From: Synechococcus sp.
GTDB taxonomy: Bacteria; Cyanobacteriota; Cyanobacteriia; PCC-6307; Cyanobiaceae
Length of the DNA stretch: 64,000 nt
Direction of reading: 5' to 3'
Assembly: GCA_047284725.1 (NCBI GenBank)
Contig: JBJBEO010000001.1
Coordinates: 704,001 to 768,000, forward strand
Position 1 is the stretch's first letter. Every line of letters starts with the position of its first letter. The notes below the pieces were generated by a model. It ran no database searches. It worked only from the letters and a program-made list of their open reading frames with translations, and was not told the DNA's origin. Shown here piece by piece: positions 28,107-46,418 of the stretch. A program made the translations under genes and the position numbers.

Positions 28107-29234
28107 ATGCTTGTTTCGGCCATGACTGCGCCTCGTCGTTCGTTGCGTCATGTCTTTGTGCTGTTGGCGTCTGCCCTTGGAGCAGGGGGACTCTTGGCTT
28201 CCGCATCGCCCATGGCGATGGCCCAAGCCTCAGGAGCTGCATGCCCGAAGCCTGGTGTGGTGCAAACAGCAACATCGGTGACTCCGATCATCAAGGCGAA
28301 TTACGCGAGTGCTGAAACGGAAGTGATCCTTGCTGATTATGTGCGCAAGATTGCCAAGGGAACGTGCAGTGAGGGGGTCGGCGTCTTCCTGCACCAGCGC
28401 GCAGCGATGGATCCCAACGAGCGCACGATTCTGCGCCCCAATTTCGACACGCTGTACTCCTTTGCGGTTCTCGACCTCGAGAGTCCCGCCACAGTGGTTC
28501 TTCCTGAGACGGATCGCTACCAGATCCTCGAAGTGATCGATGAAGACCACTGGATTCCCTTGATCAGCGACAAACCAGGTCGTTACACCCTCACCAAGGA
28601 GTCGGTGGGCAGTCGCTACGCCTTTGCCTTTGTGCGCACCCAGGTGAATGTGCAGGATCCCGCTGACGTGAAAGCTGCAGGGGCTGTGCAGGATCAGATC
28701 CTGCTGAAGCAAGCCGAAAAGGGCAGCTTTGTGTCACCCAATCGCTATGAGATGCAGGAAATTCTCGATTTGCGTGCTGATTACAACGCGCGCCGGGAGC
28801 CTGAAGGTGTGACGTCAGAAATGGCCTTTGGCAAGAAAGGCGAACTCAGTGAGGAATTGCGCAATTTTGGCGTTGCTGTGGGCTGGGGTGGCCTGCCCAA
28901 GCAGGGAGCCGTTTATCCCTTCCCCAAGGTGGTGAACTCCACCGAGCCTCAGGTGTTGGTGCTGAAAGATGTGCCCATTGACCCTCGAGCGTTCTGGTCG
29001 GTGACGGTCTACGACAAGGAAGGGTTTGCTGTTGGTACGAGCTACAACGTCAACAGTGCTTTTGCGAAAGCGAATGATCAAGGTGAGTATGTAATTCACC
29101 TGGGTGGTGATCCAAGTCAAGACAATTACATGGATATCTACCCTGGGTGGAATGCTGCGGTGCGCATTTATTCACCGACTGAGGCCTATTTCAATGGCAG
29201 TTGGACTCCCCCTCAGTTTGAGTCTGCACAGTGA
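28107..29234 (+). CDS. Secreted DUF1254/DUF1214 protein (short type, copy 1)
   Basis: Signal peptide; RPNFDTLYS, VGWGGLP, FWSVTVYD, GWNAAVRIYSP. Confidence 0.82.
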   Translation: MLVSAMTAPRRSLRHVFVLLASALGAGGLLASASPMAMAQASGAACPKPGVVQTATSVTPIIKANYASAETEVILADYVRKIAKGTCSEGVGVFLHQRAAMDPNERTILRPNFDTLYSFAVLDLESPATVVLPETDRYQILEVIDEDHWIPLISDKPGRYTLTKESVGSRYAFAFVRTQVNVQDPADVKAAGAVQDQILLKQAEKGSFVSPNRYEMQEILDLRADYNARREPEGVTSEMAFGKKGELSEELRNFGVAVGWGGLPKQGAVYPFPKVVNSTEPQVLVLKDVPIDPRAFWSVTVYDKEGFAVGTSYNVNSAFAKANDQGEYVIHLGGDPSQDNYMDIYPGWNAAVRIYSPTEAYFNGSWTPPQFESAQ

Positions 29235-29316
29235 GCTTGGGCTGGGCCTGCGGAATGCGGGCCCTTCGCATGAATGGCCTTGATTGTTCTGTGTTGTTTG
29301 TCTGCTTAATGAGCTG

Positions 29317-30453
29317 ATGTTGCGTTCTTCGTTCTCTGCTGCTGCAAAAACATGCATGGCTGGTGGTTTGGCAGCCATAGGCTTTTTGCCATTGACTGTG
29401 CTCTCAGCCCCCTCAGCCCCCTCAGCCCCCTCAGCCCCCTCAGCCCCCTCAGCCCTGGCGACGGAATGCCCCAAGCCTGCGGTGGTGATTGAAAGTGATG
29501 CGGTCGTGCCGGTCACCAAGGCCAACTTTGCGGCTGCAGAAATGCAGACGGTGTTTGCCAAGTATGTCGCCAAAGTCGCGGCTGAAACCTGTACCGAGGG
29601 CATGGGCGTCATCTGGAATGATGGACAAACGGCGGACCCCAAAGACCGCACGGTGATTCGTATCAACTTCGACACTCTGTATTCCTGGTTGATTCTCGAT
29701 CTCACGACACCAGCGACATTCACACTTCCAGAAACCAATGGCCGCTATCAGAGTGCCATGGTGGTGAATGGTGAGGGGTATGTGTATGTGGAGAAGGAGC
29801 CTGGTGAGTACACCCTGACCCAAGATGAGGTTGGGAGCCGGACTGCTCTGGTGGCATTCCGTACCGGTGTCAATATTCAGGATCCAGATGATGTTGCCAA
29901 GGCACAGGCTCTGCAGGCCAAGTTGTCGGTGATGCAGGCAAAGACGGGTGAGTTTGTGCAAGCCAACCAATGGAACTTGGAGCAGACGCTGGCGCTCCGT
30001 GCTGATTACAACCAGGAGCGGAATGAGAAGGGTGTGAAGTCGGAATCACTCTTTGGTCGACCCGACAAAATTACCCCAGAGCAAAACAACATGGGCGTTG
30101 CTGTTGGGATTGGTGGCTTACCCAAGGAGGGTGCTGTGTATCTCTTCTATACACCCACCGCAACGGAACCTCAGACACTCACATTGAAAGATGTGCCCAA
30201 TGGTGATAATGCTTTCTGGTCGTTGACGGTCTACGACAAGGATGGCTTCCCCAGCGGAGATGCATTCAATCTCAACAGCGCTTTTGCCAAAAAGAATGCA
30301 AACGGTGAAGTGGTGATCAATTTGGGTGGCGAAGCCGGCCAGGAGAACCATCTCGATATTTACCCAGGCTGGAATGCCACGTTGAGGATTTATAACCCTA
30401 AGCCTGCCTACTTTGATGGCTCATGGGTGCGGCCTGAGCTTCAGTTGAACTAA
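29317..30453 (+). CDS. Secreted DUF1254/DUF1214 protein (short type, copy 2)
   Basis: RINFDTLYS, VGIGGLP, FWSLTVYD, GWNATLRIYNP; paralogue of the upstream gene. Confidence 0.82.
   Translation: MLRSSFSAAAKTCMAGGLAAIGFLPLTVLSAPSAPSAPSAPSAPSALATECPKPAVVIESDAVVPVTKANFAAAEMQTVFAKYVAKVAAETCTEGMGVIWNDGQTADPKDRTVIRINFDTLYSWLILDLTTPATFTLPETNGRYQSAMVVNGEGYVYVEKEPGEYTLTQDEVGSRTALVAFRTGVNIQDPDDVAKAQALQAKLSVMQAKTGEFVQANQWNLEQTLALRADYNQERNEKGVKSESLFGRPDKITPEQNNMGVAVGIGGLPKEGAVYLFYTPTATEPQTLTLKDVPNGDNAFWSLTVYDKDGFPSGDAFNLNSAFAKKNANGEVVINLGGEAGQENHLDIYPGWNATLRIYNPKPAYFDGSWVRPELQLN
29403..29455 (+). repeat. 9-bp tandem repeat (CTCAGCCCC) x about 5.9, in frame
   Basis: Five perfect units plus 8/9 of a sixth; encodes (SAP)n. 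Confidence 0.95.
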
Positions 30454-30646: not shown

Positions 30647-32212
30647 ATGGTGACCACAGCATGGGTGAAGGGAGCGTCTAAGGGATTGTCTCTCTTGGCT
30701 CTTTCCGGGGTTTTGTTGGGGCTGCCATTACGGGCGCAAACGGCCGGGGGTGCTGTTCCCCGGGGGTACACCACGCCGATCCCGGAAGAGCTGTTAACGC
30801 CCGACCAGGTGAACACCAGTGTGGGAACGTTCCGTTTTTTCGATGGGATGCCGGATGCGGCCACGGTTGACACCAGCTTTGACAATCTCAAGTTCATCCG
30901 TGCTTATGAAACCTTCCTCACGTTGATGCCTGCTGCCAGCATTGAAATGCTGCGTGCTGGTCATGCCCGGATGGGGGCCGATGCCTACAACAAAGTGATG
31001 TTGCTGGCACCACTGAATTCCAATCCGTTGTTTCTCACCGGTAATACTGACACGGTGTATGGCTCGACCTTCTTCAATCTGAAGGAGACCGGTCCGATGG
31101 TGATCGAAATCCCGGCCGGGCTTGGTCCTGGAACCATCAACGATGCCTTTTTCAGGTTTGTGGCTGATACAGGTGCGCCTGGTCCAGACCGTGGCAAGGG
31201 CGGCAAATACCTGATTCTGGGCCCTGATGATGTGGAGCCGGTGAACACCGATGGCTACTTTATGTTCCGCTCTCCAAGTTACTCCAATTGGTTGATTCTG
31301 AGAGCCTTCCTTGATGATGAGGGCCAGCCTGACCAGGCTGTTGCGAATTACGAAGAAGGCCTCAAGCTCTACCCGCTTTCCTTAAAGGACAACCCTCCGC
31401 CAATGACGTTTATTCAGGGAGGGGAGGCAGTTTTTAATACGGTGCATGCCAATAACTTCCATTTTTTTGAAGAGTTAAATATCATGATTCAGAGGGAGCC
31501 GCTCAGCCTACTGGATCCCGAATTGCGAGGGCTTGCCTCGTCAATTGGTCTGGAAAAAGGAAAGCCTTTTGACCCAAGTGCCGAGGATCGCGCACTGCTG
31601 GAGGAGGCCGTGCAGGTGGGTGTTGCTTATGTGCGTTCCGACATGGGCAAACCTCGCAATTCTGATGTTTATTTCTATGAGGGCAAGCAATGGTTCACGC
31701 CGTTTGGTGGTGGCAGCCACGAATGGCTGATTGATGGCGGCAAAGGTGGTCGCAATCTCGACGCCCGCAACAATTTCTTCTGGGGTTACACCGTCAATAC
31801 GCCGGCCATGGTGCTGAAGATGGTCGGCGTTGGCTCCCAATATGGGGTGGTGGCCACGGATGCCAATGGTGCCTATCTCGATGGCAGCAAGACCTACAAA
31901 TTCACGGTTGATGCAGACGTCCCGGCCAAGGATTTCTGGTCGATGGTGGTCTATGACCCACAGACCCGTTCTGAGCTGCAGACGGATCAGCTGCTTCCCA
32001 GTAAGAACAGCAAGCGTAATCAAGACATGGTTGTGAATGCAGACGGCACCATTGATCTGTATTTCGGACCCACAGTCCCGGCCGGTCAGGAAGCGAATTG
32101 GATACAGACAGTTCCAGGTAAGGGCTGGTTCGCAATCTTCCGCCTCTATGGCCCGCTGCAGCCCTGGTTCGACAAAACCTGGCAGCTCAACGACATTCAG
32201 CCTCTTGGTTGA
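30647..32212 (+). CDS. Secreted DUF1254/DUF1214 protein (long type, copy 1)
   Basis: LTGNTDTVY, GPDRGKGGKYL, GSQY, FWSMVVYD, GWFAIFRLYGP. Confidence 0.85.
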   Translation: MVTTAWVKGASKGLSLLALSGVLLGLPLRAQTAGGAVPRGYTTPIPEELLTPDQVNTSVGTFRFFDGMPDAATVDTSFDNLKFIRAYETFLTLMPAASIEMLRAGHARMGADAYNKVMLLAPLNSNPLFLTGNTDTVYGSTFFNLKETGPMVIEIPAGLGPGTINDAFFRFVADTGAPGPDRGKGGKYLILGPDDVEPVNTDGYFMFRSPSYSNWLILRAFLDDEGQPDQAVANYEEGLKLYPLSLKDNPPPMTFIQGGEAVFNTVHANNFHFFEELNIMIQREPLSLLDPELRGLASSIGLEKGKPFDPSAEDRALLEEAVQVGVAYVRSDMGKPRNSDVYFYEGKQWFTPFGGGSHEWLIDGGKGGRNLDARNNFFWGYTVNTPAMVLKMVGVGSQYGVVATDANGAYLDGSKTYKFTVDADVPAKDFWSMVVYDPQTRSELQTDQLLPSKNSKRNQDMVVNADGTIDLYFGPTVPAGQEANWIQTVPGKGWFAIFRLYGPLQPWFDKTWQLNDIQPLG

Positions 32213-32249: not shown

Positions 32250-33803
32250 ATGACTGTTCTCAAGCACCTCCCCTCGACTGCCCTTTCCGCTTTGTTTTTG
32301 GCATGTAGCGCAACTGCCCTTCATGCTGCCGATGGGAAGCCCAAGGGCTACAACACGCCAATTCCCGTTGATGTGTTGACCCCCGATACTGTTAAAACCC
32401 GAATCGGCACGTTTAAGTATTTCGATGGTTTCCCCGATGATCAAACCATGCGCAAGGCCCGCCGTCAGGTGGATCTTGGGCGTGGTGTGCAGACGTTCCT
32501 GAACTTCATGCCGGCAGCATCCATCGAGATGCTCTACGTCGGCCACCGTGATGGGTACGGCTTGAAGTCGAATCGCGATATCGGCTTGTTTGAGGGGCTG
32601 ATGAGCTCCGAATCGCTTTGGCTCACCGGCAACACCGATACGGTGTATGCCTCAGCGTTTCTCGATCTCAGCGACGGCCCTGTCGTCGTCGAAGTGCCGG
32701 AGGGCACCGGGCCAGGTACTGTCAACGACGCCTTCTTCCGCTTTGTGGTCGACATGGGCGGCCCTGGTCCAGACAAAGGTAAAGGTGGCAAGTATCTGAT
32801 CCTTGGGCCCGGGCACCAAGCACCCGCCAACACCGACGGTTATTTCGTAGCGACCACCCCCAGCAAGATCAACTGGTTGATTCTTCGCGGCTTTCTTAAT
32901 GAGCAAGGCAAGCCCGATACGGCGAAGTCGGCCTTCAAGACTGGTCTCAAGGTGTATCCCTTTGCGCAAAGGGCCAATCCCCCTGCCAACACGTTCACCA
33001 ACCTCACCGGTTCAGACGTGAACACGATCCACGCCAATGACTTCAAGTTCTACGAAGAACTCAATGACGTGATTCAGCGTGAGCCTTCCGCGATGTTCTC
33101 CCCTGAACTCCTCGGTATGGCTTCGGCCATTGGCATTCAAAAAGGCAAGCCTTTCAACCCTTCAAGCGACCAAAAAGCTTTGCTGACCGAGGCCGTTGCC
33201 ATTGGTAATGCCACGGCGCGCTCGATTCTGTTTGCCCCGCAAGATCCCAAGGCGTACATTTATCAGGGCAAAGCGGGCTACTGGCAAACCGGATTCCCCG
33301 GTGGCAATCACGACTATGTCGTCAATGGCGGTCAGGGTGGGCGTGACATGGATGGCCGCACCCTGTTCTTCTACCTCGCCACGGTGAACACGCCGGCGAT
33401 GGTGCTGGAACTGCCTGGCGTGGGTTCCCAGTACGCCTTCACTTCTCGGGACAGTGGCGGTGCCTATCTGGATGGGTCGAAAACCTACAAACTCAACATT
33501 CCCGCCAATCCTCCCGCCCAGCGTTTCTGGTCGTTTGTGGTCTACGACCCGCAAACCCGCTCAATGCTGCAGAGCAAGGAGATGCCTTACCCCAGCAAGA
33601 ACAACAAACGCAATCCGGAGATGGCCAAGAACGCCGACGGCAGCATTGATCTGTACTTCGGTCCGGAACCCCCTGCAGGCAAAAAAGCCAACTGGGTGAA
33701 GACGGTTCCAGGGAAGGGCTGGTTCGGCATCTTCCGTCTTTACGGCCCAGGCCAGGAGTGGTTTGACCGCACCTGGAAGTTGGGATCGATTGAACAACTT
33801 TGA
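32250..33803 (+). CDS. Secreted DUF1254/DUF1214 protein (long type, copy 2)
   Basis: LTGNTDTVY, GPDKGKGGKYL, GSQY, FWSFVVYD, GWFGIFRLYGP. Confidence 0.85.
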   Translation: MTVLKHLPSTALSALFLACSATALHAADGKPKGYNTPIPVDVLTPDTVKTRIGTFKYFDGFPDDQTMRKARRQVDLGRGVQTFLNFMPAASIEMLYVGHRDGYGLKSNRDIGLFEGLMSSESLWLTGNTDTVYASAFLDLSDGPVVVEVPEGTGPGTVNDAFFRFVVDMGGPGPDKGKGGKYLILGPGHQAPANTDGYFVATTPSKINWLILRGFLNEQGKPDTAKSAFKTGLKVYPFAQRANPPANTFTNLTGSDVNTIHANDFKFYEELNDVIQREPSAMFSPELLGMASAIGIQKGKPFNPSSDQKALLTEAVAIGNATARSILFAPQDPKAYIYQGKAGYWQTGFPGGNHDYVVNGGQGGRDMDGRTLFFYLATVNTPAMVLELPGVGSQYAFTSRDSGGAYLDGSKTYKLNIPANPPAQRFWSFVVYDPQTRSMLQSKEMPYPSKNNKRNPEMAKNADGSIDLYFGPEPPAGKKANWVKTVPGKGWFGIFRLYGPGQEWFDRTWKLGSIEQL

Positions 33804-33880: not shown

Positions 33881-35230
33881 ATGGCTCGATCTGTTGATGT
33901 GGTTGTGATTGGTGGTGGTTTTGCCGGCATCACAGCAGCCCGTGACCTGCAAAAGCGTGGCTACGACGTGCTTGTTCTCGAAGCCCGTGATCGGCTAGGT
34001 GGGCGCACCTGGAGTGAGCATCGCAACGGCTTTCATGTGGAGTTGGGAGGCACCTGGGTGCATTGGACCCAGCCCTTCGTGTGGGCCGAGAAGGAGCGTT
34101 ACGGCCTCGAGGTTCAGGAGACACCAGGCTGTGTCGCCGAGCGGGTGGCGATCAAAATCGACGGTCAGGTTCAGGAGTTGCGGGAATCGCAGCTTGGTGA
34201 ATTTGTGGAGGGTTTTGAGCACTTTTTTGCCGAGTCAAAGGGCGTCTGGGAGCGTCCCTATGACGTGCACCACTGCTGGGATGCGGTGTGTGAACGCGAC
34301 GGCCTGACCGTCGCTGATCGTCTCAACGCCCTCGAGCTCACGCCCTTGCAGCGCACCAGCATCGGTGGATTTCTCGAGATCCTCAGCATGAACCAACCGC
34401 AGAACGCCTCCTACGTGGAGATGATGCGCTGTTGGTCGCTCACCGGTTGGAATTATGAGCTGTTCAATGACACCGCAGCCCGGTACAAGTTCACCCAAGG
34501 CACCGGTGCCTTGGTGGAGGCGATGACCAGCGACGGTGGTTTTGAGGTTTCGCTGAACACATCGGTGCGCGCTGTTCAGCAATCCAGCGATGGCGTCTGC
34601 GTCACCACGGAGTCAGGTGAGCTGGTGATTGCCAAACGTGCGGTGGTGACCGTTCCATTGAACGTGCTGCATAGCGTCGACTTTGATCCGCCCCTCTCCG
34701 AGGTGAAGTTGGAAGCCTCCCGCCTCAAACATGTCGGCGGTGGCTACAAAGTGTTTTTTGAAGTGGAGGGGGACCCCGGCGCGGTGATGACCTTGTCGCG
34801 ATCCACCGATTCACCGCTGATCGGCAGCTTCACCTACAAACGTGGTGAACAGCACTCCGTGCTGGCCGGTTTCAGTCTGGAACCCGGAGCTCTGGACAAG
34901 TCGGTGGAGGAGTGGCAAGTGGTGCTGGGGGAATTCATTCCCGGCGTGAAGTTGCTGTCCACCTTCGGACATGACTGGGGTGCAGACGATCTCTCCCGGG
35001 GGAGCTGGGCCACCTATCGGCCTGGAACCGTGGCTTGCTTCAGCGATGAACTGCCGCGTCAGGAAGGCCATGTTTTCTTTGCATCCGGAGACCATGCCCA
35101 GGGCTGGCGCGGATTCATCGAAGGAGCCATTGCCAGTGGCTCCCGCACGGCTGTAACTGTGGCCGACAGCCTGATCTCTCAGACTGCCAGCACACCGGTG
35201 GCGTCAGTCAAACAGCCAGCGCAGGCCTAA
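33881..35230 (+). CDS. Flavin monoamine oxidase family protein
   Basis: DVVVIGGGFAG, LEARDRLGGR, ELGGTW, GWRGFIEGAIASG. Confidence 0.9.
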   Translation: MARSVDVVVIGGGFAGITAARDLQKRGYDVLVLEARDRLGGRTWSEHRNGFHVELGGTWVHWTQPFVWAEKERYGLEVQETPGCVAERVAIKIDGQVQELRESQLGEFVEGFEHFFAESKGVWERPYDVHHCWDAVCERDGLTVADRLNALELTPLQRTSIGGFLEILSMNQPQNASYVEMMRCWSLTGWNYELFNDTAARYKFTQGTGALVEAMTSDGGFEVSLNTSVRAVQQSSDGVCVTTESGELVIAKRAVVTVPLNVLHSVDFDPPLSEVKLEASRLKHVGGGYKVFFEVEGDPGAVMTLSRSTDSPLIGSFTYKRGEQHSVLAGFSLEPGALDKSVEEWQVVLGEFIPGVKLLSTFGHDWGADDLSRGSWATYRPGTVACFSDELPRQEGHVFFASGDHAQGWRGFIEGAIASGSRTAVTVADSLISQTASTPVASVKQPAQA

Positions 35231-36235
35231 GTTCACGCCGCTTTGATCCACGCTGTAGGAGTTCCCACCTCCGCCGGCGTAATCAAGGCCGAAATACTTA
35301 TAGGAGAGGGAGAGCTGAGCCGAGTTGCCCAGGGCGTAGGCAATGCCTGCCTGGGCGGTTCCACTCAGATCCCGCTCTCCGCTCAGACCGAATCCGCCTG
35401 CATCGAGGTAGGCAAAGGCTTGCCAGTCTTCGCTGATGGCGTAGGTGCCAAAGACACCAATCAGTGGTTGAACCCAGGTATTGCCGTAGCTTTCCCCCGA
35501 CGCTCTCTCCAGCTCGCGGGTGAATTCCCTGCTGACGCGTCTCCCGTCAACGGACACCGTGGTATTGCTTTTCACCGTCCAGTTGGTGTGGATGTTGGCA
35601 TCGATGACGCGTGCTCCCATGAGGCCAACGAAGCTGCTGCTTCCCTTCTCCATCCGTGGTTTCTGAATCGCTCCCCCCCGGTAACGGAAGGCCAGATCGA
35701 CGATGGTTTGATTGGCTTCAACATCGAGATCAAGATCACCCTTCACGCGAATGGTGCGCTCACGCAGACCTGCCGGAAGACCGAGTCGATTGCGTAGCGG
35801 GTTGCTGGTTTCCTTGTAAACAGATGCGGACTGGCTGTCGGAAAGACTGCCGTGATAGACCCCGGCCATAAAACCAAGGCGACCGTATTCCACCTGGGCT
35901 TTAAAGGTGAGCGCCTCATCCAGTGTCTCGATCACATCGGAGAGAGGAAGACTTGTCCTTGATGTGTTGCCGTTGATGCTTGTCGTCGTGTAAGTCGTCG
36001 GCACCAGGAACGCATAGAGATCGAGGTACACGCGCCAGGCGTCTTCTTCGTCTGGTGTGGGCTCCAGTTCGATGTCGATCTCTTCGGCCTGACTGAGTAC
36101 GAGTGGAGTCGTGAAATCAGCTTCGCTTCCAACTCCAGATGAAGTGCCGACCTTTGGCTTTGCTGCGACTTCCACACTCAGGCTGCTCAGGCTTGCCAGA
36201 AGTGCCAGGGATAAAGTTCGCATCGCAGCAGACAT
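35204..36235 (-). CDS. Putative outer-membrane beta-barrel protein
   Basis: Signal peptide, alternating amphipathic strands, C-terminal GVNLGLRWLFD aromatic signature; start 36235 or 36223. Confidence 0.65.
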   Translation of the reverse strand: MSAAMRTLSLALLASLSSLSVEVAAKPKVGTSSGVGSEADFTTPLVLSQAEEIDIELEPTPDEEDAWRVYLDLYAFLVPTTYTTTSINGNTSRTSLPLSDVIETLDEALTFKAQVEYGRLGFMAGVYHGSLSDSQSASVYKETSNPLRNRLGLPAGLRERTIRVKGDLDLDVEANQTIVDLAFRYRGGAIQKPRMEKGSSSFVGLMGARVIDANIHTNWTVKSNTTVSVDGRRVSREFTRELERASGESYGNTWVQPLIGVFGTYAISEDWQAFAYLDAGGFGLSGERDLSGTAQAGIAYALGNSAQLSLSYKYFGLDYAGGGGNSYSVDQSGVNLGLRWLFD

Positions 36236-36563
36236 TGAAGTGTCATCACGGTAGGGATAGCTTTGAACTTCTGCATTGGCGTTTGGTCCCATCCGTGCGA
36301 AGTTGTCGTTGACAGAACTTGTTCACTTGGCAGCCATTCGACAGCCAATCCCTGCGTCGTTCGTGTGTTTGACGTTTGTGCAACGACTGGTGTTCTCTGT
36401 TGTGATATTGCAGCGTGGATCGCTCGCTTTTGTTTCTTGATGTTTTGTTTCTGGTCTTGAGTGTTCAGATTTGCCGGGTTGGTGGTTTTTTGTGTTTCAA
36501 GCTTGTGGTGATGAATCAATTTTTGAACCATCAGCGTAAGCTTGTTCGGCTGAAGTTTTTGTA

Positions 36564-37772: not shown

Positions 37773-37931
37773 GGCTGGTCGACCTGTTGTGGTTGCTCGT
37801 TGTTTAGCGACAGAAAAACGTTTGGATTGATCCCAATGGTGCACGGTTGGTTGATGTTGTCACTCATAACGTCAACCCCTGGCTAACGAAGAGGAAGTTC
37901 CAAGGCCTCGTTGCCTCATCAAGGTCACGCC

Positions 37932-40603: not shown

Positions 40604-41638
40604 TTAAGTCAGCGAGTTTATCAGTGTTGCACGGGGTGTTTCGTCGAAATGAGTCCTGTAGGCCCTTGCGAAGTGCCCGCGGCTGCGGAATCCGCAGTGT
40701 TCGGAGATATCGGAAACGGTGTAAAGCGCATGTTGCTGCCTGGCCTCAGGAGATCGCAGCAGGGTGTGAACTTGTTGCAGGCGAATGGTGCGTAGCAGTT
40801 CCATGGGTCCACAAGCGAAATTGTCTTTCGTGCCGAGGATCAGGGTGCGTCTTGACGTGTAGAGCTGCTCACAGATTTGATCGAGGCTTGCATGGGACCC
40901 AAGGTTAAGGGTGCTCCATCGCACCAATTCACGGACTAATTCATTGCGTTTGGATAGGACAAAAGGGGTAAAATAATTGCTGCGACTCTGGAGACTTTCG
41001 ATGATTGCGGTGAAAAGAGTTTGAGCACTCAAGACATTGTTCCGTAGGGTGAGAGGAGGGTTTTCTATCAGTGCTTGAATGTGTTGGCATAGGTTTTTGT
41101 GTCTGTCCGGATCGAGGCTGAGGCTGTTGCTGGCCAGCAGAGGCTCGATCAAATGTTCATGGCCAGTCTTGGTGAGGAGGTTGTTGAAGCGTCTGGCGCT
41201 GCTGATGGCGATCAGGCTTACAGATCCAGCGCTTAGTTGGAAGTGTGATTCCCTCAGATTTTGGTTGAAGCCGTACAGCCCGAATGGGTCAAAAGACTGA
41301 CATTGCACGCGGTGATCTTTGCTATTTCCAGTGCATTCCAGGCAAAAACTGATGCAGTCTTCTCCTCGATTGCCATTCAGCAACAGCACTTGATTGGTGC
41401 TGATCTTCAGCAGGCTGATCCCCTCAAGATGCAGAACACTGAAGTGACCCTGTAGTGGCCCTGAGCTCAGCTGCACCACATAAAAGTCTTTGCCCAGACC
41501 TTTCAGGCATTGGGCCAATTCACAGGCGCTAACAAATGATGTGTTGGTCTTCGTGACGACGGCCCTTGGGCCTGCCGTTGAAGTCTGGGAAGCTGTGTCA
41601 AGAGCAGTTTGCGCTGAAGAGAGATGGTGATGCATCAC
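40604..41638 (-). CDS. AraC-family transcriptional regulator (EutR-like)
   Basis: C-terminal double HTH: SRRTL...GPMELLRTIRL...CGFRSRGHFARAYRTHFDETP. Confidence 0.85.
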   Translation of the reverse strand: MMHHHLSSAQTALDTASQTSTAGPRAVVTKTNTSFVSACELAQCLKGLGKDFYVVQLSSGPLQGHFSVLHLEGISLLKISTNQVLLLNGNRGEDCISFCLECTGNSKDHRVQCQSFDPFGLYGFNQNLRESHFQLSAGSVSLIAISSARRFNNLLTKTGHEHLIEPLLASNSLSLDPDRHKNLCQHIQALIENPPLTLRNNVLSAQTLFTAIIESLQSRSNYFTPFVLSKRNELVRELVRWSTLNLGSHASLDQICEQLYTSRRTLILGTKDNFACGPMELLRTIRLQQVHTLLRSPEARQQHALYTVSDISEHCGFRSRGHFARAYRTHFDETPRATLINSLT

Positions 41639-41716: not shown

Positions 41717-42862
41717 TTGAAGTCAAAAGGTGGTCGGTTGGATCGAGGATCATCCTCTCGCCTGATCGATCGTCTCGTGGCTGGGTCTTGTCTCAGACCG
41801 TCCGTGGTGTTCACGGCAATGGGTGATGGACCTGTCTCGTGGCGCCGCTTGGTTGTGGCGGCTCAATTGGTGTTGCCCGGACTGTTTCTGGAGCCGTTGG
41901 CCTGGTGTCAGGATTTGCTTCTCTACCGCAAGCTGCGGTCTCTTCAGGTACCCGATGACCCTGTGGTGATCGTGGGGCACTGGCGCAGTGGTACGACGTT
42001 GTTGCACCAACTGTTGGCGGCCGATCCGGCGATGGCCACAGCGCGCAACAGTTTGACGATCGCGCCTCAGGTTGCGGTGCTGCTCAAGCCCCTGCTGGTG
42101 CCGCTGTTGCAGCGGTTGATGACGCCCATTCGCCCCATCGACGCTGTGGCCTGGGGTGCCATGGATCCTCAGGAAGATGAAATCGGCCTGGCCAGGCTCA
42201 CCTGCGACACGAACATGGCCGGTGTGGCGTTCCCGCATCAATATCGACGGAATTTCCGCTGTCGGGTATTGCAGTCGACCCCGAGCTTGGAGCGGCAGCT
42301 GCATCATTTCAGCCAGCTCACCTGGCTCCACGATGGGGCAGGGAAACGACGTCTGCTCATCAAGAATCCCGCTCACACGGCCCGCATGCCGCTTTTGTTG
42401 ACACTGTTCCCCCGGGCCAAGGTTGTGTTGTTGAAGCGAGATCCGATGGATTCGGTTCGCTCCTTGGTGCAGGTCAAGCAGTGTTTGGCTGATCTGGTCG
42501 CTCTTCAAGCCCCGCTGGATGAGGTCACTCAGGTGGAGGAAACAGCAGAAGCGCACCGATTGTTGATGAGAGCCTTCAATGCCTCACGCCATTTGATTCC
42601 GCCTGGTCAGCTGGTGGAGGTTGATTACAAGGATCTGTTGGCGAATCCGTTGAGAACAGTCGAGAACATTTATCAACGTCTGGAACTGGGTGGTTGGTCG
42701 CAAGCTCATGCATCCGTGGCCCGTTGCGCTGCATCGGCAGCTCATTACCGTCCACGACCTGTGCATCTCAGTGATGAGGCGGAAGCACGCCTGCAGGAGC
42801 TGATGCAACCTGCAGGCGCAGGAGCGGTTACTCGCCGAAGGCCACCTGGCAGGCGGCATTGA
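41717..42862 (+). CDS. PAPS-dependent sulfotransferase family protein
   Basis: IVGHWRSGTTLLH (5'-PSB loop), KNPAHTAR, LKRDP...S (3'-PB); start uncertain (41717 or 41819). Confidence 0.85.
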   Translation: MKSKGGRLDRGSSSRLIDRLVAGSCLRPSVVFTAMGDGPVSWRRLVVAAQLVLPGLFLEPLAWCQDLLLYRKLRSLQVPDDPVVIVGHWRSGTTLLHQLLAADPAMATARNSLTIAPQVAVLLKPLLVPLLQRLMTPIRPIDAVAWGAMDPQEDEIGLARLTCDTNMAGVAFPHQYRRNFRCRVLQSTPSLERQLHHFSQLTWLHDGAGKRRLLIKNPAHTARMPLLLTLFPRAKVVLLKRDPMDSVRSLVQVKQCLADLVALQAPLDEVTQVEETAEAHRLLMRAFNASRHLIPPGQLVEVDYKDLLANPLRTVENIYQRLELGGWSQAHASVARCAASAAHYRPRPVHLSDEAEARLQELMQPAGAGAVTRRRPPGRRH

Positions 42863-43880
42863 GCAGCTGCGCTTCATTGCTGTCGCGCGGTGTGTCTCCA
42901 TTGATGGTGCCTTGGCGGCAGTTGGCTGAGAAGCGCACGCTTTCGTAGCCGTTGTCGGCTTCGAAGGTGATCACGTCGCCACTCGCGGTCACGCTCGGGT
43001 AGTAGAGCGAGTAATCCGAGCTAGGCACGACGATATAGCTCACCTGGTTGGACTGCGCTGAGTTCACCAGGCTGTTGATGACCCCGAAGGTGGCCATGCC
43101 AGCCAGACCCCAGGCTGCTGCCTTTCCGGGATACCAGCCCCAGTTGTTCCAGTAGGAACCGCCATACCAGCCATAGTTCCAGGGGCGATTGTTGTACCAA
43201 CCGCTGTTGCTGTACCAGCCCCTGCCATAGCGGTCCCAGTTGTTAACGGCCTTCCGGTAGGTGTCGTTGCGGTTGTTGACTCGGTTGTTACGTCCGTCCT
43301 GGCGGATGTCGGTGCGGTTGGTGCGATCGTTCTGGCGAGTGCTCTGACGCGAATCACGGCTGCCTTGCCGATTGGTCTGGTTGGTTTGGCGGTTGGACTG
43401 GCGTGACCCCTGATTGCTCTGGCGAGTGCTTTGACGCGAATCTCGGCTGCCCTGCCGATTGGTCTGGTTGGTTTGGCGGCTGGTTTGCCGCGATCCTTGA
43501 TTGGATTGGCGTGTACTGCTGCGAGACCCGCTGTTCCGGGAACTGCCACTCCGTGACCCGCTGCTGCGGGAGCCACTGCCGCTGTGGGAGCTGAAGCCGG
43601 TTCGTCCACCACTGGAGCCTCCGCGGGAGCTGCTGCGAGACCCGCTGCTGCGAGACCCCGAACTCCTTGATCCACTGCTACGTGATCCACCACCCCGGGA
43701 ACCACCACCCCGGGAACCACCACCTCGGGAACCACCTCCCCGCTGGGCCAATTCGATTTCGGTGTTGGCGGCTGTGGGAGTGACTGCGCTGGTGGCCATC
43801 GCTGCCAACCCCGCTGTTGGTTGCAGGCTCAGCAGCAGGCTGATGAAGCCGGCAACAGGTTTTGCATGGTTCTTGTTCAT
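42828..43880 (-). CDS. Secreted low-complexity G/S/R/Q/N-rich protein with Trp/Tyr/Gly-rich segment and small C-terminal Cys-pair domain
   Basis: ATG at 43880 overlaps the upstream stop; signal peptide; (GGSRG)n repeats, Q/N repeats, WY..GW segment. Confidence 0.7.
   Translation of the reverse strand: MNKNHAKPVAGFISLLLSLQPTAGLAAMATSAVTPTAANTEIELAQRGGGSRGGGSRGGGSRGGGSRSSGSRSSGSRSSGSRSSSRGGSSGGRTGFSSHSGSGSRSSGSRSGSSRNSGSRSSTRQSNQGSRQTSRQTNQTNRQGSRDSRQSTRQSNQGSRQSNRQTNQTNRQGSRDSRQSTRQNDRTNRTDIRQDGRNNRVNNRNDTYRKAVNNWDRYGRGWYSNSGWYNNRPWNYGWYGGSYWNNWGWYPGKAAAWGLAGMATFGVINSLVNSAQSNQVSYIVVPSSDYSLYYPSVTASGDVITFEADNGYESVRFSANCRQGTINGDTPRDSNEAQLLNAACQVAFGE
43332..43511 (-). repeat. 87-bp imperfect tandem duplication (29-aa unit RQSNQGSRQ..RQTNQTNRQGSRDSRQST)
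   Basis: CTGGCGAGTGCT occurs at 43332 and 43419 (period 87) with matching downstream sequence. Confidence 0.85.
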
Positions 43881-44377
43881 CGCTTGAGTGCCTCCATCAG
43901 TCGCTTGCAACCGTTGTCGAAGCAGGCCACCTCCACGCGGCCATTGCTCCCGAAGGCCATCCCGGCCTTGGTGCGCCCTTGCATGGCATCCCCACTGTTC
44001 ACCAGTACGTCGGCCAGGAAGGTGGGATTGTTGACACAGAACGCTCGGTTGTTGAAGCAGAGCTCCTGGTCTTGAAAATCGATCGTCGCGTTTTTCACGG
44101 AGGCCCAAGCTGCTCCTGCTGCCTTTTGGCCTTCGATGCGCACGTAGGGCGAGTCAATCACGCGATAGGACACGGTGCGTCCGCCGAAGCTGTGGCGGTA
44201 TTCAGTGGTGTCGTCAACATTCACTGCTGTGACTGTGCAGGCGAAGGGTTCGGCCGTGCCAGTGCTGCAGGTGGTATCGAGCCTGTAGAGCTCTTCGGCC
44301 TGAAGGGAAGGAGCGTGAACGATTCCGCCGATCAAGAGCAGACCCAACAGCAACCTGCACCGTTGTGGTGTGGTCAT
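43877..44377 (-). CDS. Secreted hypothetical protein with 3 putative Cys pairs
   Basis: Signal peptide; 6 Cys in the mature part; translationally coupled to the downstream gene. Confidence 0.7.
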   Translation of the reverse strand: MTTPQRCRLLLGLLLIGGIVHAPSLQAEELYRLDTTCSTGTAEPFACTVTAVNVDDTTEYRHSFGGRTVSYRVIDSPYVRIEGQKAAGAAWASVKNATIDFQDQELCFNNRAFCVNNPTFLADVLVNSGDAMQGRTKAGMAFGSNGRVEVACFDNGCKRLMEALKR

Positions 44378-44459
44378 AGGGATGAGGATTGATGCAGAGA
44401 TGGAGGGTGGAATGCCTCCGTTCTTGCAAGATGGCCAGAGGCTGAAACATCGTCAGTAG

Positions 44460-44738
44460 ATGTGCACAGATGGGATCAAGCATCGGCGTGAACGGTTGCA
44501 TGAGCTGCTGCTCGCCTTGATCGAGCAGCAGGCTGATCTCGAATTGATGGATGCCGATGGCCCCACCGGATTCACCGTCAGTGGGGCCAGTGATGCTGCT
44601 GCCGATGCAGCCCGCTGGATGGAGCGCAACCGCAGGGTGTTGCAGCGTTATCAGTCGTTGGTGCGTACAGCCGTCACCCTGGATGCGTTGCTCGATGCTG
44701 AGACCACAGCAGGACCTGAGGTCAATGAGTCGTTCTGA
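44460..44738 (+). CDS. Hypothetical protein
   Basis: 92-aa helical-looking ORF (LHELLLALI...RYQSLVRTAVTLDALL). Confidence 0.6.
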   Translation: MCTDGIKHRRERLHELLLALIEQQADLELMDADGPTGFTVSGASDAAADAARWMERNRRVLQRYQSLVRTAVTLDALLDAETTAGPEVNESF

Positions 44739-44843
44739 TCGTTCTGGCATGGGTTGATCAACACCGGCGGTTCGCTCACCTTCACCAGCACCAAAAGCTG
44801 CGGCGAGTCTGTGAAGGCCGACCTCCCTGCCCAGGGGTCGGCC

Positions 44844-46418
44844 TCAGTCCTCTTCCTGATGCAGCAGTTGTTGTTCACGGCCAATGATCAGCAACAGCAG
44901 GCTGAGGGCCAGCAGTAATCCGGTGAGGCTTGCCATCAGAAGCATCGTGCCGGCGAGGCCCTGGCTGTAGGCCCCTCGCAACACCGTCAGCATCGGCTCG
45001 ACATCCGAGGCCGGTAACGCGATCGGACTGTTGCGCAGAAATAAATGCACCATCTGGTCGAGTTGGGGACTCGTCTCAGCGCCAAGTCCTGCCAGTTGCA
45101 GTCGGGTCTGCAGGTCGTTGAAGCCCAGGCCGCGGATCATCGTGCCGCTGATGGCCAGCCCGAAGGCAAACCCCAGCTGGCCGCTGGTGGTGCGGAAGGC
45201 CAGCACTGAGCCAAAGCAATCGTCTGGTGCCTCCTGCACGAACAGGGACGACTGGGGTACAGCCACAAAGGCCAGCCCGACTCCCGACAGAACGAGCGCT
45301 GGCAACAGGTGCCAATAGGGGGTGTGGACCTGCACGATCGCGACCAGCGCCAGCCCGATGGTGAGAGTCAGGCTGCCCCAGGCCATCAGCACCAGAGTGC
45401 GTCGCCCCGGTGCCATCCAGCGGCCTGCCAGGATCCCGGCCAGGCCGAAGCAGAGCAGAAACGGCAGCTGGCCCAAGGCCACGGAGCTGGTGCTGTATCC
45501 CTGCACCAGTTGCCAGAAGTTGCTGGTCTGCAGCTGCAGCACGGCTTGGGCCACGTTCCAGCCGAGGCCGTTCACCACCGCGGCGGCGAAAAAGCCCCTC
45601 AGGTAAAGCCTGGGGGGGAAGATCGGGGTGGTGCAGCCTCGCTCCCAGGCGATGTGGAGGCCGTACAGCAGAAGCCCGAGGACGCTTGGCAGCCAGAAGG
45701 CCGGGCTGCGCAATCCCGTTGCGGCATGGTTGATGCCATAGAGAAACAGCACCACCGCAGAGGCGATCGTGAGTAGCCCCAGTCCATCGGGCCGCAGACG
45801 GCGATTGGCCGGAATCGAGGGCAGCAGCACAGGTAGGAGCGGCAGGCTGATCACGCAGATCAGGGGCACCAGGCCCATGGCCAGGCGCCAGTGCAGGGTG
45901 GCCATCCAGCCGCCGAGCAGGGAACCGATGATGAAGGCCACCACGATCAGCAGATTCCAGAGCCCAAGAGCGGCATTGAGTTGATGGGGGCGGCTCACGG
46001 CTCGCACGCTCGCAAAGGTGCTGGTGAGTACCGAGCCCAGAGCGATCCCCGTGAGCGCCCTGCCCAGTAGGAAGACATTCGCTGCAGGGGCCAGCATGGA
46101 GAGCAGGTTGCCCGCAAGGGCCAGTAGCAGTGAGGCAGCGAGGATTCTGCGCCTGCCGTAGCGATCCCCGAGAAAGCCCATCACCAGCACCGTGGCGGCC
46201 TGAGCCAGGGTGGAGACGCTGGCCGCCAGCGCCAGCGTTGCCCCTTCCATGTGCAGGTTGGCGCTGGCATTCACCAGGGCGATGTTCGCCACGCTGGGAT
46301 CGATCAGCTGCAGGCCTGCCAGGAGTCCCAGATAGGGCACCGCCAGGGGCGAGATGCCGTTGGGATTGGAACAGGTGTGGCCCATCTCAATGCATCGCCC
46401 GTTTCCATCCAACGTCAT
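44844..46418 (-). CDS. MFS transporter (DHA2-like, about 14 TM)
   Basis: MFS motif A GFLGDRYGRRR, GRALTG, many TM segments. Confidence 0.88.
   Translation of the reverse strand: MTLDGNGRCIEMGHTCSNPNGISPLAVPYLGLLAGLQLIDPSVANIALVNASANLHMEGATLALAASVSTLAQAATVLVMGFLGDRYGRRRILAASLLLALAGNLLSMLAPAANVFLLGRALTGIALGSVLTSTFASVRAVSRPHQLNAALGLWNLLIVVAFIIGSLLGGWMATLHWRLAMGLVPLICVISLPLLPVLLPSIPANRRLRPDGLGLLTIASAVVLFLYGINHAATGLRSPAFWLPSVLGLLLYGLHIAWERGCTTPIFPPRLYLRGFFAAAVVNGLGWNVAQAVLQLQTSNFWQLVQGYSTSSVALGQLPFLLCFGLAGILAGRWMAPGRRTLVLMAWGSLTLTIGLALVAIVQVHTPYWHLLPALVLSGVGLAFVAVPQSSLFVQEAPDDCFGSVLAFRTTSGQLGFAFGLAISGTMIRGLGFNDLQTRLQLAGLGAETSPQLDQMVHLFLRNSPIALPASDVEPMLTVLRGAYSQGLAGTMLLMASLTGLLLALSLLLLIIGREQQLLHQEED

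Follow-up and report, generated by a model that had tools for sequence, protein, structure and literature searches.

The DUF1254/DUF1214 proteins VPA0735 (PDB 3vb9/2p3y) and VPA0106 of Vibrio parahaemolyticus and 6ANS of Burkholderia cenocepacia are available for comparison as structural-genomics entries, and we know of no biochemical activity for any member of this protein family. The conversion of cysteine into formylglycine is established for the family of formylglycine-generating enzymes (FGE), known examples of which occur in Mycobacterium tuberculosis and Streptomyces coelicolor. In Klebsiella, arylsulfatase synthesis is tied to monoamine metabolism (atsBA with tyramine oxidase); the oxidase of this system is a copper amine oxidase and the maturase a radical-SAM enzyme. 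Among solved sulfatases, PDB entry 1HDH, which we take to be the Pseudomonas aeruginosa arylsulfatase PAS/AtsA, combines a PF00884 domain with a CxPxR motif, and 7ALL is described as BT4683, an S1_4 galactose-3-sulfatase of Bacteroides thetaiotaomicron (PMC10154620). Moreover, 7U6L is described as the pseudooxynicotine amine oxidase Pnao (PMC9396064), and a PF06742 orthologue of Chlamydomonas is reported to be strongly induced upon sulfur depletion (PMC4634964).

The window, which is the whole stretch of 64,000 nucleotides of Synechococcus DNA that was analyzed, contains relatives of these proteins in a block flanked by cbiET on one side and by GH18 and GH116 genes on the other. The block comprises the following features:

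28107..29234, + strand: short DUF1254/DUF1214 protein 1, 375 aa (PF06863 E 1e-13, PF06742 E 5e-8)
29284..30453, + strand: short DUF1254/DUF1214 protein 2, 389-aa ORF (Pfam)
30647..32212, + strand: long DUF1254/DUF1214 protein L1, 521 aa (Pfam E 5e-28 and 2e-23)
32250..33803, + strand: long DUF1254/DUF1214 protein L2, 517 aa (Pfam)
33881..35230, + strand: flavin amine oxidase-family enzyme, 449 aa (Amino_oxidase PF01593 E 4e-53)
35204..36292, - strand: outer-membrane beta-barrel protein, 362-aa ORF (AlphaFold2 model and Foldseek)
36564..37412, + strand: FGE, 282 aa (FGE-sulfatase PF03781 E 2e-75)
37404..37844, - strand: small membrane-protein ORF, conserved, newly listed (ORF list and tblastn)
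37911..40352, + strand: Cys-type S1 sulfatase, 813-aa ORF (PF00884 E 2e-55)
40604..41638, - strand: AraC-family regulator (HTH_18 E 8e-13)
41717..42862, + strand: Sulfotransfer_3 sulfotransferase, 381-aa ORF (PF13469 E 3e-34)
42828..44108, - strand: secreted low-complexity protein, newly listed (ORF list)
44214..44750, - strand: ORF, newly listed, initial ~90 codons conserved in 13/13 genomes (tblastn)
44844..46418, - strand: MFS transporter, 524 aa (MFS_1 E 3e-36)

Each gene named in the preceding sequence-only reading was found in its place by means of the ORF list and Pfam, but the inventory was incomplete in that three conserved genes, marked above as newly listed, were absent from it. The sole PF00884 gene, the sole full-length FGE gene and all four DUF1254 matches of the 2.58-Mb genome are located within 12.3 kb, and this clustering exceeds chance. 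A crude hydropathy scan was non-discriminating for export signals and the N-termini were judged by eye, yielding signal-like sequences in the DUF proteins, the barrel and the sulfatase, with the amine oxidase and the FGE devoid of a signal peptide.

The sulfatase probably starts at ATG 37932 and carries the motif C-A-P-T-R, which is of the CxPxR type. Its best solved match is BT4683 (7ALL, E 2e-55), although the match covers residues 75-401 and is thus restricted to the N-terminal half of the protein, and SusC/SusD-type polysaccharide-utilisation genes are absent from its neighbourhood. The second of the nearest solved structures, 1hdh, matches over residues 85-599 (E 2e-48), whereas the window sulfatase is about 270 residues longer, with a signal-like N-terminus and a C-terminal extension of ~200 aa that is kept throughout the subfamily. 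The FGE matches human SUMF1 (2aii) with an E-value of 6e-69, both active-site cysteines being aligned, and 2q17 with an E-value of about 1e-68, which places the predicted enzyme in the formylglycine-generating family. By their sequences, the sulfatase and the FGE are therefore to be regarded as bona fide members of their families and as the sole such pair of the genome. In contrast to classical sulfatase and FGE systems, the pair is flanked by DUF1254/DUF1214 and barrel genes. The small ORF between the FGE and sulfatase genes is antisense to them, occupies the same place in 8 of 13 genomes according to tblastn and gave no match in Pfam and NCBIfam searches. A terminator-like hairpin follows the sulfatase gene at 40380-40404.

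The long DUF proteins L1 and L2 are sisters in the DUF family tree, the L2 gene beginning 37 bp past L1. L2 matches VPA0735 in sequence with an E-value of 1e-72, and its AlphaFold2 model (pLDDT 93.5) resembles 2p3y with a Z score of 45 and an rmsd of 2.4 over 457 residues. A Foldseek search with this model (E 1e-47) returned solely uncharacterised structural-genomics entries. Unlike L2, the short paralogues of the window resemble the solved DUF1254/DUF1214 structures weakly (E 0.0016); short protein 2 probably starts downstream of the annotated ORF start, and its gene is followed by a terminator-like hairpin at 30503-30533. The designation of the 35204-36292 product as a beta-barrel drew no support from Pfam, where it remained below every cut-off (OMP_b-brl E 0.38), but was borne out by its predicted fold. 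The AlphaFold2 model, of moderate quality with a mean pLDDT of 64, contains long antiparallel strands in residues 86-361, the top Foldseek matches were all outer-membrane barrels (E down to 7e-8, TM 0.38-0.60), and its Atlas features are similar to DUF481/OMP_b-brl clusters. The barrel ORF probably starts at Met20 or Met24.

A comparison with 13 complete genomes of the same genus indicated conservation of the block as a locus, as opposed to a set of independent insertions, since the gene order between cbiET and GH116 is kept in all 13. This order comprises cbiET, the DUF genes, the oxidase where present, the barrel, the FGE, one or more sulfatases, AraC, the sulfotransferase, the low-complexity protein and GH116, the latter being located beside the block in 13/13 genomes. 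L1 and L2 were present in 13/13 genomes, the barrel within the block, any sulfatase and at least one short DUF gene in 12/13 each, the FGE in 11/13, the oxidase in 10/13, the AraC, sulfotransferase and low-complexity protein genes in 12/13 each and the paralogue of short protein 2 as well as the MFS gene in 5/13. With respect to these distributions, the block consists of three separable modules rather than one system. The first includes the DUF1254/DUF1214 genes, joined by the amine oxidase in the 10 genomes carrying it. The second comprises the barrel, FGE and sulfatase genes, which were relocated as a trio in G015 and G011, where a 37%-identical paralogous sulfatase remains within 5-7 kb of the DUF genes. 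The third consists of the AraC, sulfotransferase and secreted low-complexity protein genes, all of which were lost from G005 with retention of the DUF, barrel, FGE and sulfatase genes. In G001 (92% complete) the DUF genes are present, and a search for FGE or sulfatase genes found none.

Among the associations of the block, the link between DUF and sulfatase genes alone extends past the Synechococcus lineage, as revealed by a survey of 79 DUF loci distributed over many phyla, with L052 as the sole Synechococcus locus, by cyanobacterial genomes and by other phyla. The proposed neighbourhood of DUF1254/DUF1214 with sulfatase, FGE and amine oxidase genes accordingly held for the sulfatase, whereas homologues of the FGE and the amine oxidase were absent from all 78 non-Synechococcus loci. 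A PF00884 sulfatase is encoded at 11 of the 79 loci, at 72-131 bp from the nearest DUF gene in L063, L071, L080 and L084, and the proteins of L071, L080, L084, L094, L111 and L114 are members of the ~800-aa subfamily of the window sulfatase (36-51% identity). In an unbiased sample of 301 Cyanobacteriota genomes, this subfamily occurred in 39, DUF1214 in 21 and both in 16, as compared with about 2.7 expected under independence. The two genes are at most 20 kb apart in 12 of these 16 genomes, representing five families and nine genera, with ~0.3 such genomes expected by chance from arithmetic on genome sizes and copy numbers; these counts are to be read with the caveat that related genomes are non-independent samples. 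In a second unbiased sample of 200 genomes from the class of G043, the subfamily was present in four, of which three carry DUF1214 and two the pair within 10 kb. The pairing also occurs in Desulfobacterota, Vulcanimicrobiota, Pseudomonadota and Planctomycetota. In five genomes picked for showing adjacency, DUF1214 adjoins a subfamily sulfatase in all five, with 2, 5, 1, 1 and 1 copies of the sulfatase and 1, 4, 4, 6 and 1 copies of DUF1214. The link is facultative, because no sulfatase is located near 68 of the 79 DUF loci and because, among the cyanobacteria, 5 of 21 genomes with DUF1214 are without the sulfatase subfamily and 23 of 39 with the subfamily are without DUF1214. DUF proteins are also associated with small outer-membrane barrels, which neighbour 18/79 loci.

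These data lead us to lean towards a conserved, modular envelope locus for sulfate-ester scavenging, in which the DUF proteins are unexplained accessory parts, and away from one pathway. The small outer-membrane barrel would admit an organic sulfate ester to the periplasm, where the exported DUF proteins may bind, present or trim the substrate, as suggested by gene association and matching compartment. The exported sulfatase, whose nearest solved relatives fall into subfamily S1_4, would then strip the sulfate after activation by the neighbouring, putatively cytoplasmic FGE, which would convert the cysteine of its motif into formylglycine. The AraC, sulfotransferase and low-complexity genes form a distinct module next to it, and the MFS gene is variably present. 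Candidate substrates are aryl sulfates, sulfated sugars or sulfated lipids, and the benefit might be carbon, nitrogen or sulfur. Because seawater is rich in sulfate, a marine cell would have little obvious reason to scavenge sulfur. The recurrence of the DUF-sulfatase adjacency across phyla gives the large unstudied DUF1254/DUF1214 family a testable role.

It is unlikely that the DUF and sulfatase genes are functionally unrelated accessory envelope genes that merely collect in variable regions. The GC content of 0.53-0.56 across 28-42 kb of the window versus about 0.61 in the flanks, the gene content varying from strain to strain, the greater similarity of the long DUF pair to marine heterotroph proteins than to other cyanobacterial ones and the majority of DUF loci lacking a sulfatase are consistent with such a juxtaposition. 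However, the adjacency recurs in at least five phyla with differing spacings and orders, and the sulfatase concerned comes from one subfamily, of which several of those genomes have a single copy. Moreover, signal peptides are jointly present (L084, L094, L111 and the window) or jointly absent (L080 and G039) in each pair, and in G039, L080 and L084 the two genes point in the same direction with a gap of under 150 bp. In G039, a distant cyanobacterium, the DUF, sulfatase, SulP, SBF and FGE genes are all located on the same strand.

To be regarded as similarly improbable is the view that the DUF proteins are enzymes, for instance glycoside hydrolases, or lectin-like modules, and that the locus together with GH18 and GH116 scavenges sulfated glycoconjugates. 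A glycosyl-hydrolase function has been proposed on the basis of homology modelling (PMC4634964), the galactose-3-sulfatase BT4683 is the nearest solved sulfatase and GH116 constantly accompanies the block. The C-terminal domain of L2 (residues about 330-517) is a beta-sandwich weakly resembling carbohydrate-binding modules, galectins and the RetS sensor domain, but with Z scores of up to 5.7, Z <8 being the chance range of that search. The residues invariant across 82 family members (N128, Y133, P150, R213, Y395, P422, Y432, P475, W482, R496, Y498 and P500) include no acidic one. Furthermore, no glycoside hydrolase family was detected among the 24 annotated neighbour clusters, which represent every cluster present in at least three DUF loci, and the commonest barrels at these loci are similar to Phenol_MetA_deg-type channels.

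Besides sulfate-ester scavenging by separable modules, a single pathway encoded by 28107-46418 had been suggested, which would bring in and bind a sulfated amine or amino sugar, remove its sulfate and amino groups and transport it. The contiguity and genus-wide order of the genes speak for this proposal, as does the position of the oxidase gene, which begins 77 bp past L2 in the same orientation; the gap is free of terminator-like hairpins and is bridged by contigs from RNA libraries of relatives, which is not proof of a single transcript. The Klebsiella atsBA system likewise links a sulfatase and an amine-oxidising enzyme within one organism, but the window encodes a flavoenzyme and an aerobic FGE, and its type of linkage is confined to two sister genera. 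The oxidase, present in 4 of 151 family genomes, is a late, lineage-specific addition in this genus and a sister genus only, and it occurs independently of the sulfatase: G007 contains DUF and oxidase genes without any FGE or sulfatase, and G002, G005 and G009 contain sulfatases and no oxidase. Its nearest solved structures are 7u6l and 7e7h (E 5e-96 to Pnao, about 1e-73 to entries of NicA2 from Pseudomonas putida S16), from which it differs in lacking an N-terminal signal sequence and nearby nicotine-pathway genes. It is thus predicted to be cytoplasmic and the DUF proteins to be exported, and no importer gene is encoded in the window. A search for a common upstream sequence motif found none. 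Since homologues of the oxidase, the FGE and the sulfotransferase are likewise missing from all 78 DUF loci outside Synechococcus, the FGE and sulfatase genes are separated by an antisense gene, the oxidase is uncoupled from the sulfatase and the sulfotransferase from the DUF genes, and the MFS gene is variable, the single pathway is unsupported and very improbable.

The sulfotransferase, with 2zq5 and 2z6v as nearest solved structures, was detected in 10/151 family genomes, including three of the sister genus in which DUF was not found with the query used. In the 12 of 13 genus genomes that carry them, the divergent AraC gene and the gene of the low-complexity protein always adjoin the sulfotransferase gene. 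The latter, without match in Pfam and NCBIfam searches, probably starts at Met78 (about position 43877) and contains GGSR and S/N/Q/R repeats. The MFS protein is efflux-pump-like, as its best NCBIfam matches, all below cut-off, are efflux pumps, led by the DHA2 efflux subfamily (93 bits versus a cut-off of 230).

The block at 28107-46418 is bounded by cbiET on one side and by GH18/GH116 genes on the other. ORF listing and Pfam searches, together with a structural model in the case of the barrel, located every gene that the sequence-only reading had named where that reading had placed it, and additionally revealed three conserved genes that it had overlooked (37404-37844, 42828-44108 and 44214-44750).

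Gene content of the block (identified by ORF listing and Pfam unless specified otherwise)
28107-29234 and 29284-30453: two short DUF1254+DUF1214 proteins
30647-32212 and 32250-33803: two long DUF1254+DUF1214 proteins, L1 and L2
33881-35230: flavin amine oxidase
35204-36292 (-): putative beta-barrel gene, below all Pfam cut-offs, suggested by model and Foldseek
36564-37412: FGE
37404-37844 (-): small membrane-protein ORF between the FGE and sulfatase genes, on the opposite strand
37911-40352: sulfatase with CAPTR motif
40604-41638 (-): AraC regulator
41717-42862: Sulfotransfer_3 enzyme
42828-44108 (-): secreted low-complexity protein
44214-44750 (-): ORF of unsettled frame, first ~90 codons conserved
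44844-46418 (-): MFS transporter

The genome is represented by a single contig of 2.58 Mb, and its sole PF00884 match, its sole full-length FGE match and all four of its DUF1254 matches fall within 12.3 kb. The flanks have a GC content of about 0.61, which drops to 0.53-0.56 between 28 and 42 kb. The ORF at 37404-37844 encodes several hydrophobic segments without a family match and was detected by tblastn in the same place in eight of 13 complete genomes of the genus. The first ~90 codons of 44214-44750, which gave no Pfam match, are kept in all 13 genomes according to tblastn, and the true reading frame is unsettled because ORFs in other frames overlap it.

The sulfatase contains an S1 sulfatase domain (PF00884, 188 bits against a cut-off of 25), and its C-A-P-T-R motif conforms to the formylglycine pattern C/S-x-P-x-R, with the C, P and R invariant among 11 members of its subfamily. 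It is established for these families that FGE turns the motif cysteine into formylglycine, which is required by the sulfatase. The FGE of the block (254 bits to the FGE-sulfatase domain) matches human SUMF1 with E 6e-69 and 2q17 with E 1e-68, lacks a signal peptide and, in an alignment that pairs LCAENYC with the MCHRSYC of SUMF1, shows both active-site cysteines in register, as is typical of the aerobic enzyme with its domain and two catalytic cysteines. Judged by these sequence features, the genome encodes a Cys-type sulfatase and a predicted cytoplasmic FGE able to activate it; such pairs are well known, and this one is ordinary. The best solved matches of the sulfatase were 7all (E 2e-55) and 1hdh (E 2e-48), the latter the arylsulfatase of Pseudomonas aeruginosa and a member of S1_4. 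A placement in S1_4 of SulfAtlas is suggested by the best solved match, 7all, and would be tentative. The 7ALL entry represents BT4683, an S1_4 galactose-3-sulfatase according to the available part of PMC10154620.

The sulfatase has a signal-like N-terminus and a C-terminal extension of ~200 residues that is common to the whole subfamily. Co-folding of this extension (residues 600-807) with mature L2 (residues 28-517) gave a score of 0.00, which speaks neither for nor against binding. The twin arginine of the leader varies among the orthologues (RR, RH, RR, KQ), and for this reason Tat export is not firmly claimed. A second, partial FGE-sulfatase match (profile positions 4-124) lies in a 582-aa frame elsewhere in the genome, at 2352181-2352600 of the contig. 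A literature search on marine Synechococcus sulfatases yielded nothing on this locus; a different S1 sulfatase cluster is said to be freshwater-strain-specific in the accessible text of PMC9361551.

All four DUF proteins exceed both Pfam cut-offs with both domains in one chain and are hence members of the DUF1254/DUF1214 family. Of 1.84 billion cluster representatives, 10,009 belong to this family at E up to 0.001, and three of its members have solved structures. L2 matches VPA0735 with E 1e-72. Structure prediction, which the sequence-only reading had proposed for these proteins, recovered the VPA0735 fold for L2, the only modelled copy (pLDDT 93.5, Z 45 to 2p3y), but the fold search did not point to a function. 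The only other clear structural matches, 3u07 and 6ans, are uncharacterised structural-genomics entries like 2p3y, and Foldseek likewise returned uncharacterised family members only, followed by Cry-toxin matches with TM 0.14 or less that were disregarded. In a wide VIA search, the C-terminal beta-sandwich of L2 resembled carbohydrate-binding modules, galectins and the sensor domain of RetS only weakly (Z up to 5.7).

An alignment of 82 family members revealed twelve invariant residues (N128, Y133, P150, R213, Y395, P422, Y432, P475, W482, R496, Y498 and P500) and no invariant acidic residue. The core common to the long and short forms consists of NxDTxY (128-133), R213, FWSxxVY (426-432), N481, RxYxP (RxY at 496-498) and W509. 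Invariant aromatic, arginine and asparagine residues without an invariant acid would fit a binding site better than a hydrolase; a glycosyl hydrolase function has been proposed from modelling (available part of PMC4634964). The accessible portions of the literature on DUF1254/DUF1214, VPA0735 and VPA0106, PMC4634964, PMC2744874 and PMC11840546 among it, assign no biochemical function. According to the same portion of PMC4634964, sulfur depletion strongly induces an orthologue of PF06742 in Chlamydomonas, which fits a sulfate-ester role for the DUF family.

In a midpoint-rooted FastTree phylogeny of the 82 members, whose supports were not inspected, L1 is the sister of L2, and their neighbours are sequences of marine Gammaproteobacteria and Planctomycetota, not of other cyanobacteria. 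This topology suggests that an old transfer preceded the duplication and is to be taken as a lead only. Of nine long proteins taken from the best 150 family representatives, four are DUF-DUF tandem fusions. Another of the nine (P0065, 577 aa) joins a LolA-like DUF2092 domain to DUF1254, a single and possibly truncated case that provides a lead towards a hydrophobic ligand.

The product of 35204-36292 is a probable outer-membrane barrel. Its OMP_b-brl match (E 0.38) remains under the Pfam cut-off, and the AlphaFold2 model is of moderate quality (mean pLDDT 64) with long antiparallel strands over residues 86-361; the top Foldseek matches of this model are all outer-membrane barrels, namely omptins, Legionella porins, TodX/FadL and OpcA (E down to 7e-8, TM 0.38-0.60). 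The oxidase is a flavin amine oxidoreductase (PF01593, 181.6 bits over residues 14-427; N-terminal dinucleotide-binding motif GGGFAG at 11-16), and its nearest structures are 7u6l/7e7h (E 5e-96) as well as NicA2-type entries. The available part of PMC9396064 identifies the 7U6L entry as pseudooxynicotine amine oxidase from Pseudomonas putida S16 and reports that this enzyme is a dehydrogenase. Since the oxidase ORF begins right at the FAD-binding motif and is not extendable upstream, the enzyme is placed in the cytoplasm.

The AraC regulator belongs to the AraC/XylS family (C-terminal HTH_18, 49 bits against 33.6) and the sulfotransferase, putatively PAPS-dependent, to Sulfotransfer_3 (PF13469, 119.6 bits against 27; nearest solved structures 2zq5 and 2z6v). 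The AraC and sulfotransferase genes are divergently transcribed, and AraC never occurs without the sulfotransferase and the low-complexity protein, so that the three were treated as a neighbouring module. The low-complexity protein, which combines GGSR repeats with long repeats rich in S/N/Q/R and a C-terminal part rich in W/Y/G, always adjoins the sulfotransferase (12/13 genomes) and might be its acceptor. The transporter is a general MFS_1 member; with 93 bits to TIGR00711 (DHA2 efflux) it stays below the cut-off of 230.

Within the genus, the long DUF gene occurs in 21 and a sulfatase orthologue (84-95% identity) in 13 of 24 other same-genus genomes. Additionally, 40 kb around the DUF pair were taken from 12 complete genomes and the proteins of the window were mapped onto them. 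The gene order is kept in all 13 genomes, the window's own (G000) included, and the block is in this sense a conserved locus.

Presence of the genes in the block of 13 complete genomes (G numbers denote genomes)
L1 and L2: 13/13; missing from none
At least one short DUF: 12/13; missing from G005
Amine oxidase: 10/13; missing from G002, G005, G009
Barrel: 12/13; missing from G015
FGE: 11/13; missing from G007, G015
Orthologous sulfatase: 9/13; missing from G007, G009, G015, G016
Paralogous sulfatase, 35-37% identical: 9/13; missing from G000, G005, G007, G018
Any sulfatase: 12/13; missing from G007
AraC, sulfotransferase and low-complexity protein: 12/13 each; missing from G005
MFS: 5/13; missing from the other 8
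GH18: 3/13; missing from the other 10
GH116 (right-hand neighbour): 13/13; missing from none

This variation between genomes divides the block into modules. Genome G005 retains the DUF, barrel, FGE and sulfatase genes and lacks AraC, the sulfotransferase and the low-complexity protein; G007 contains the DUF, oxidase and barrel genes along with the AraC-sulfotransferase module, and these queries detected neither FGE nor sulfatase in its whole genome. Two genomes, G015 and G011, have the barrel, FGE and orthologous sulfatase genes together at another site, and their DUF genes remain at the cbiET locus, within 5-7 kb of the paralogous sulfatase. In a family draw of 151 genomes, the long DUF was detected in 39, which represent 18 of the 64 genera, and not in the small-genome genera of the draw. 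The sulfotransferase was present in 10 genomes of this draw, including three sister-genus genomes in which the DUF was not found, and the oxidase in only four genomes of two genera. The oxidase gene lies within 100 bp of L2 in one genome (G049) and within 80-590 bp in three others (G000, G016, G018); this cytoplasmic enzyme most likely joined the locus late.

Seven further genes are present in most relatives and missing from the window: a second barrel gene between barrel and FGE, genes for a phosphatase (PAP2), a lipid kinase of DAGK type and a metallophosphoesterase (Metallophos), and, beside the paralogous sulfatase, genes for an SBF-family transporter with DUF202 and DUF1622. A tblastn search of the window (E up to 0.001) revealed no remnants of any of the seven. 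PAP2, the DAGK/YegS-type kinase and the metallophosphoesterase follow FGE in G016 and G009 (loci L035:18014-18868, L030:309-1619 and L036:199-1758) and also in G018, and constitute a lipid-flavoured set. The paralogous sulfatase is devoid of a signal peptide and stands with SBF (bile acid/Na+ symporter family), DUF202 and DUF1622 at L036:2119-6287 of G016 and likewise in G002, G009 and G015. A further same-genus locus, L045 (G008:C1:950000-969999), contains another tandem DUF pair, which is divergent (32-43% identity) and adjoins a 43-44%-identical sulfatase, with an 856-aa FG-GAP/SWM_repeat protein upstream.

An Rfam search over 20000-56000 (E up to 0.1) gave no match, and neither promoter-like sites (3 against 6.9 expected from shuffles) nor terminator-like sites (15 against 18.4) were in excess. 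Two terminator-like hairpins stand directly past stop codons, after the second short DUF gene and after the sulfatase gene; together with the antisense gene between FGE and sulfatase they suggest several transcription units. No exact 7-mer or 8-mer was shared by at least three of 14 gene classes in the 300 bp upstream of the genes in the 13 genomes, a crude search for a common operator by which degenerate sites would be missed. Three metatranscriptome runs of one study contain small shares of the window (0.07-0.10), represented by contigs from relatives (90-99% alike) that cover 26-27 of 30 bins, with none over the AraC and sulfotransferase genes (40944-42271); such contigs cannot reveal expression level, strand or operons.

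Beyond the genus, a four-sequence DUF alignment was used to scan one genome per species, resulting in 79 loci that include flanking sequence of at most 10 kb; only L052 is from Synechococcus. Their 1,089 ORFs were clustered by all-against-all blastp, and 24 cluster representatives were annotated with Pfam. Neighbours of the DUF gene included a PF00884 sulfatase and a ~270-aa signal-peptide protein without a Pfam family, each in 11 of the 79 loci, as well as AraC (6), an Omp85-like barrel (5), a ~260-aa barrel weakly like that of the window (5), a Phenol_MetA_deg barrel (3) and a Type I phosphodiesterase (3). In language-model features, the ~270-aa family resembles putative-transporter clusters in which 13% of the members carry Phenol_MetA_deg. 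Altogether, a sulfatase or phosphodiesterase occurs in 14/79 loci, a barrel-type neighbour in 18/79 (16/51 among loci of 15 kb or more), and two or more long DUF genes in 23/79. The 78 non-Synechococcus loci contain no homologue of the window's oxidase, FGE or sulfotransferase, which speaks against the earlier idea of one co-inherited system, whose parts should all be co-conserved outside the lineage; the modules were lost or moved independently.

The ~800-aa sulfatase subfamily of the window recurs in six DUF loci with 36-51% identity. Five genomes that were picked for showing adjacency contain 2, 5, 1, 1 and 1 subfamily copies along with 1, 4, 4, 6 and 1 DUF1214 copies, respectively, and each of the five has them side by side; Desulfosarcina variabilis shows a tandem pair of DUF genes immediately upstream of the sulfatase gene. 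Two unbiased samples were analysed as well. Among 301 Cyanobacteriota genomes, 39 encode the sulfatase subfamily (E up to 1e-80) and 21 DUF1214, and both occur in 16 against 2.7 expected under independence. In 12 of these 16 genomes, from five families and nine genera, DUF1214 and sulfatase lie within 20 kb on one contig (11 within 12 kb), where about 0.3 such close-pair genomes are expected by chance (arithmetic from copy numbers and genome sizes). The other four have them on separate contigs (three genomes) or 128 kb apart (one). Among 200 genomes of the class of G043, four encode the subfamily; three of the four also encode DUF1214, and in two the genes are within 10 kb.

Moreover, the predicted compartments match. 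Neither the DUF protein nor the sulfatase has a signal peptide in G039, a distant cyanobacterium, or at locus L080, and both have one at L084, L094, L111 and in the window. The DUF, sulfatase, SulP sulfate permease, SBF transporter and FGE genes of G039 are located on one strand; SBF in this run and beside the signal-less sulfatase of the genus hints that sulfate esters may be imported and then processed in the cytoplasm. The sequence-only reading, which had taken the whole block as one pathway for a sulfated amine or amino sugar, is supported in its DUF-sulfatase link and not in its single co-inherited system. The unusual part of the locus is this recurrent partnership of a sulfatase with DUF1254/DUF1214 proteins and small barrels; the locus is otherwise ordinary in kind, with a sulfatase and its FGE, a channel and a regulator.

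In the window, predicted exported DUF proteins and the probable outer-membrane barrel are encoded beside sulfatase and FGE. A sulfate ester would pass the outer membrane via the barrel, might be handled in the periplasm by the DUF proteins, as their association and matching compartment suggest, and would be desulfated there. Seawater is rich in sulfate, and the cell would more probably profit from the skeleton as a source of carbon or nitrogen. It is conceivable, if rather doubtful, that the DUF clade including L1 and L2 would be a dedicated accessory of the ~800-aa S1_4-like sulfatases, binding or presenting aromatic or amphipathic sulfate esters like the activator proteins of lysosomal sulfatases, with a periplasmic form acting along with Phenol_MetA_deg-like or DUF481-like channels and a cytoplasmic form with SBF-type importers. 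If this were true, the family, which amounts to about 10,000 sequence clusters, would gain its first testable biochemical role. The repeated link to one sulfatase subfamily and to small channels, with matching compartments, offers a concrete hypothesis for a DUF family without an assigned function, for which marine Synechococcus provides a good testing ground due to the single sulfatase in the genome, and the locus adds to the evidence that marine picocyanobacteria are equipped for using dissolved organic matter.

Two neighbouring regions of the window deserve mention. The gene at 24203-26398 (-) encodes a 731-aa protein without a Pfam match that was not found in the 40-kb regions taken from the 12 relatives; a hydrophobic segment at its N-terminus precedes a very long, coiled-coil-like stretch rich in glutamine and an HPD-containing C-terminal stretch that appears J-domain-like by eye, and the AT skew of the gene is extreme (-0.34). 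On the other side of the block, positions 46627-52353 encode a GH18 chitinase with CBM_2 and a GH116 enzyme.
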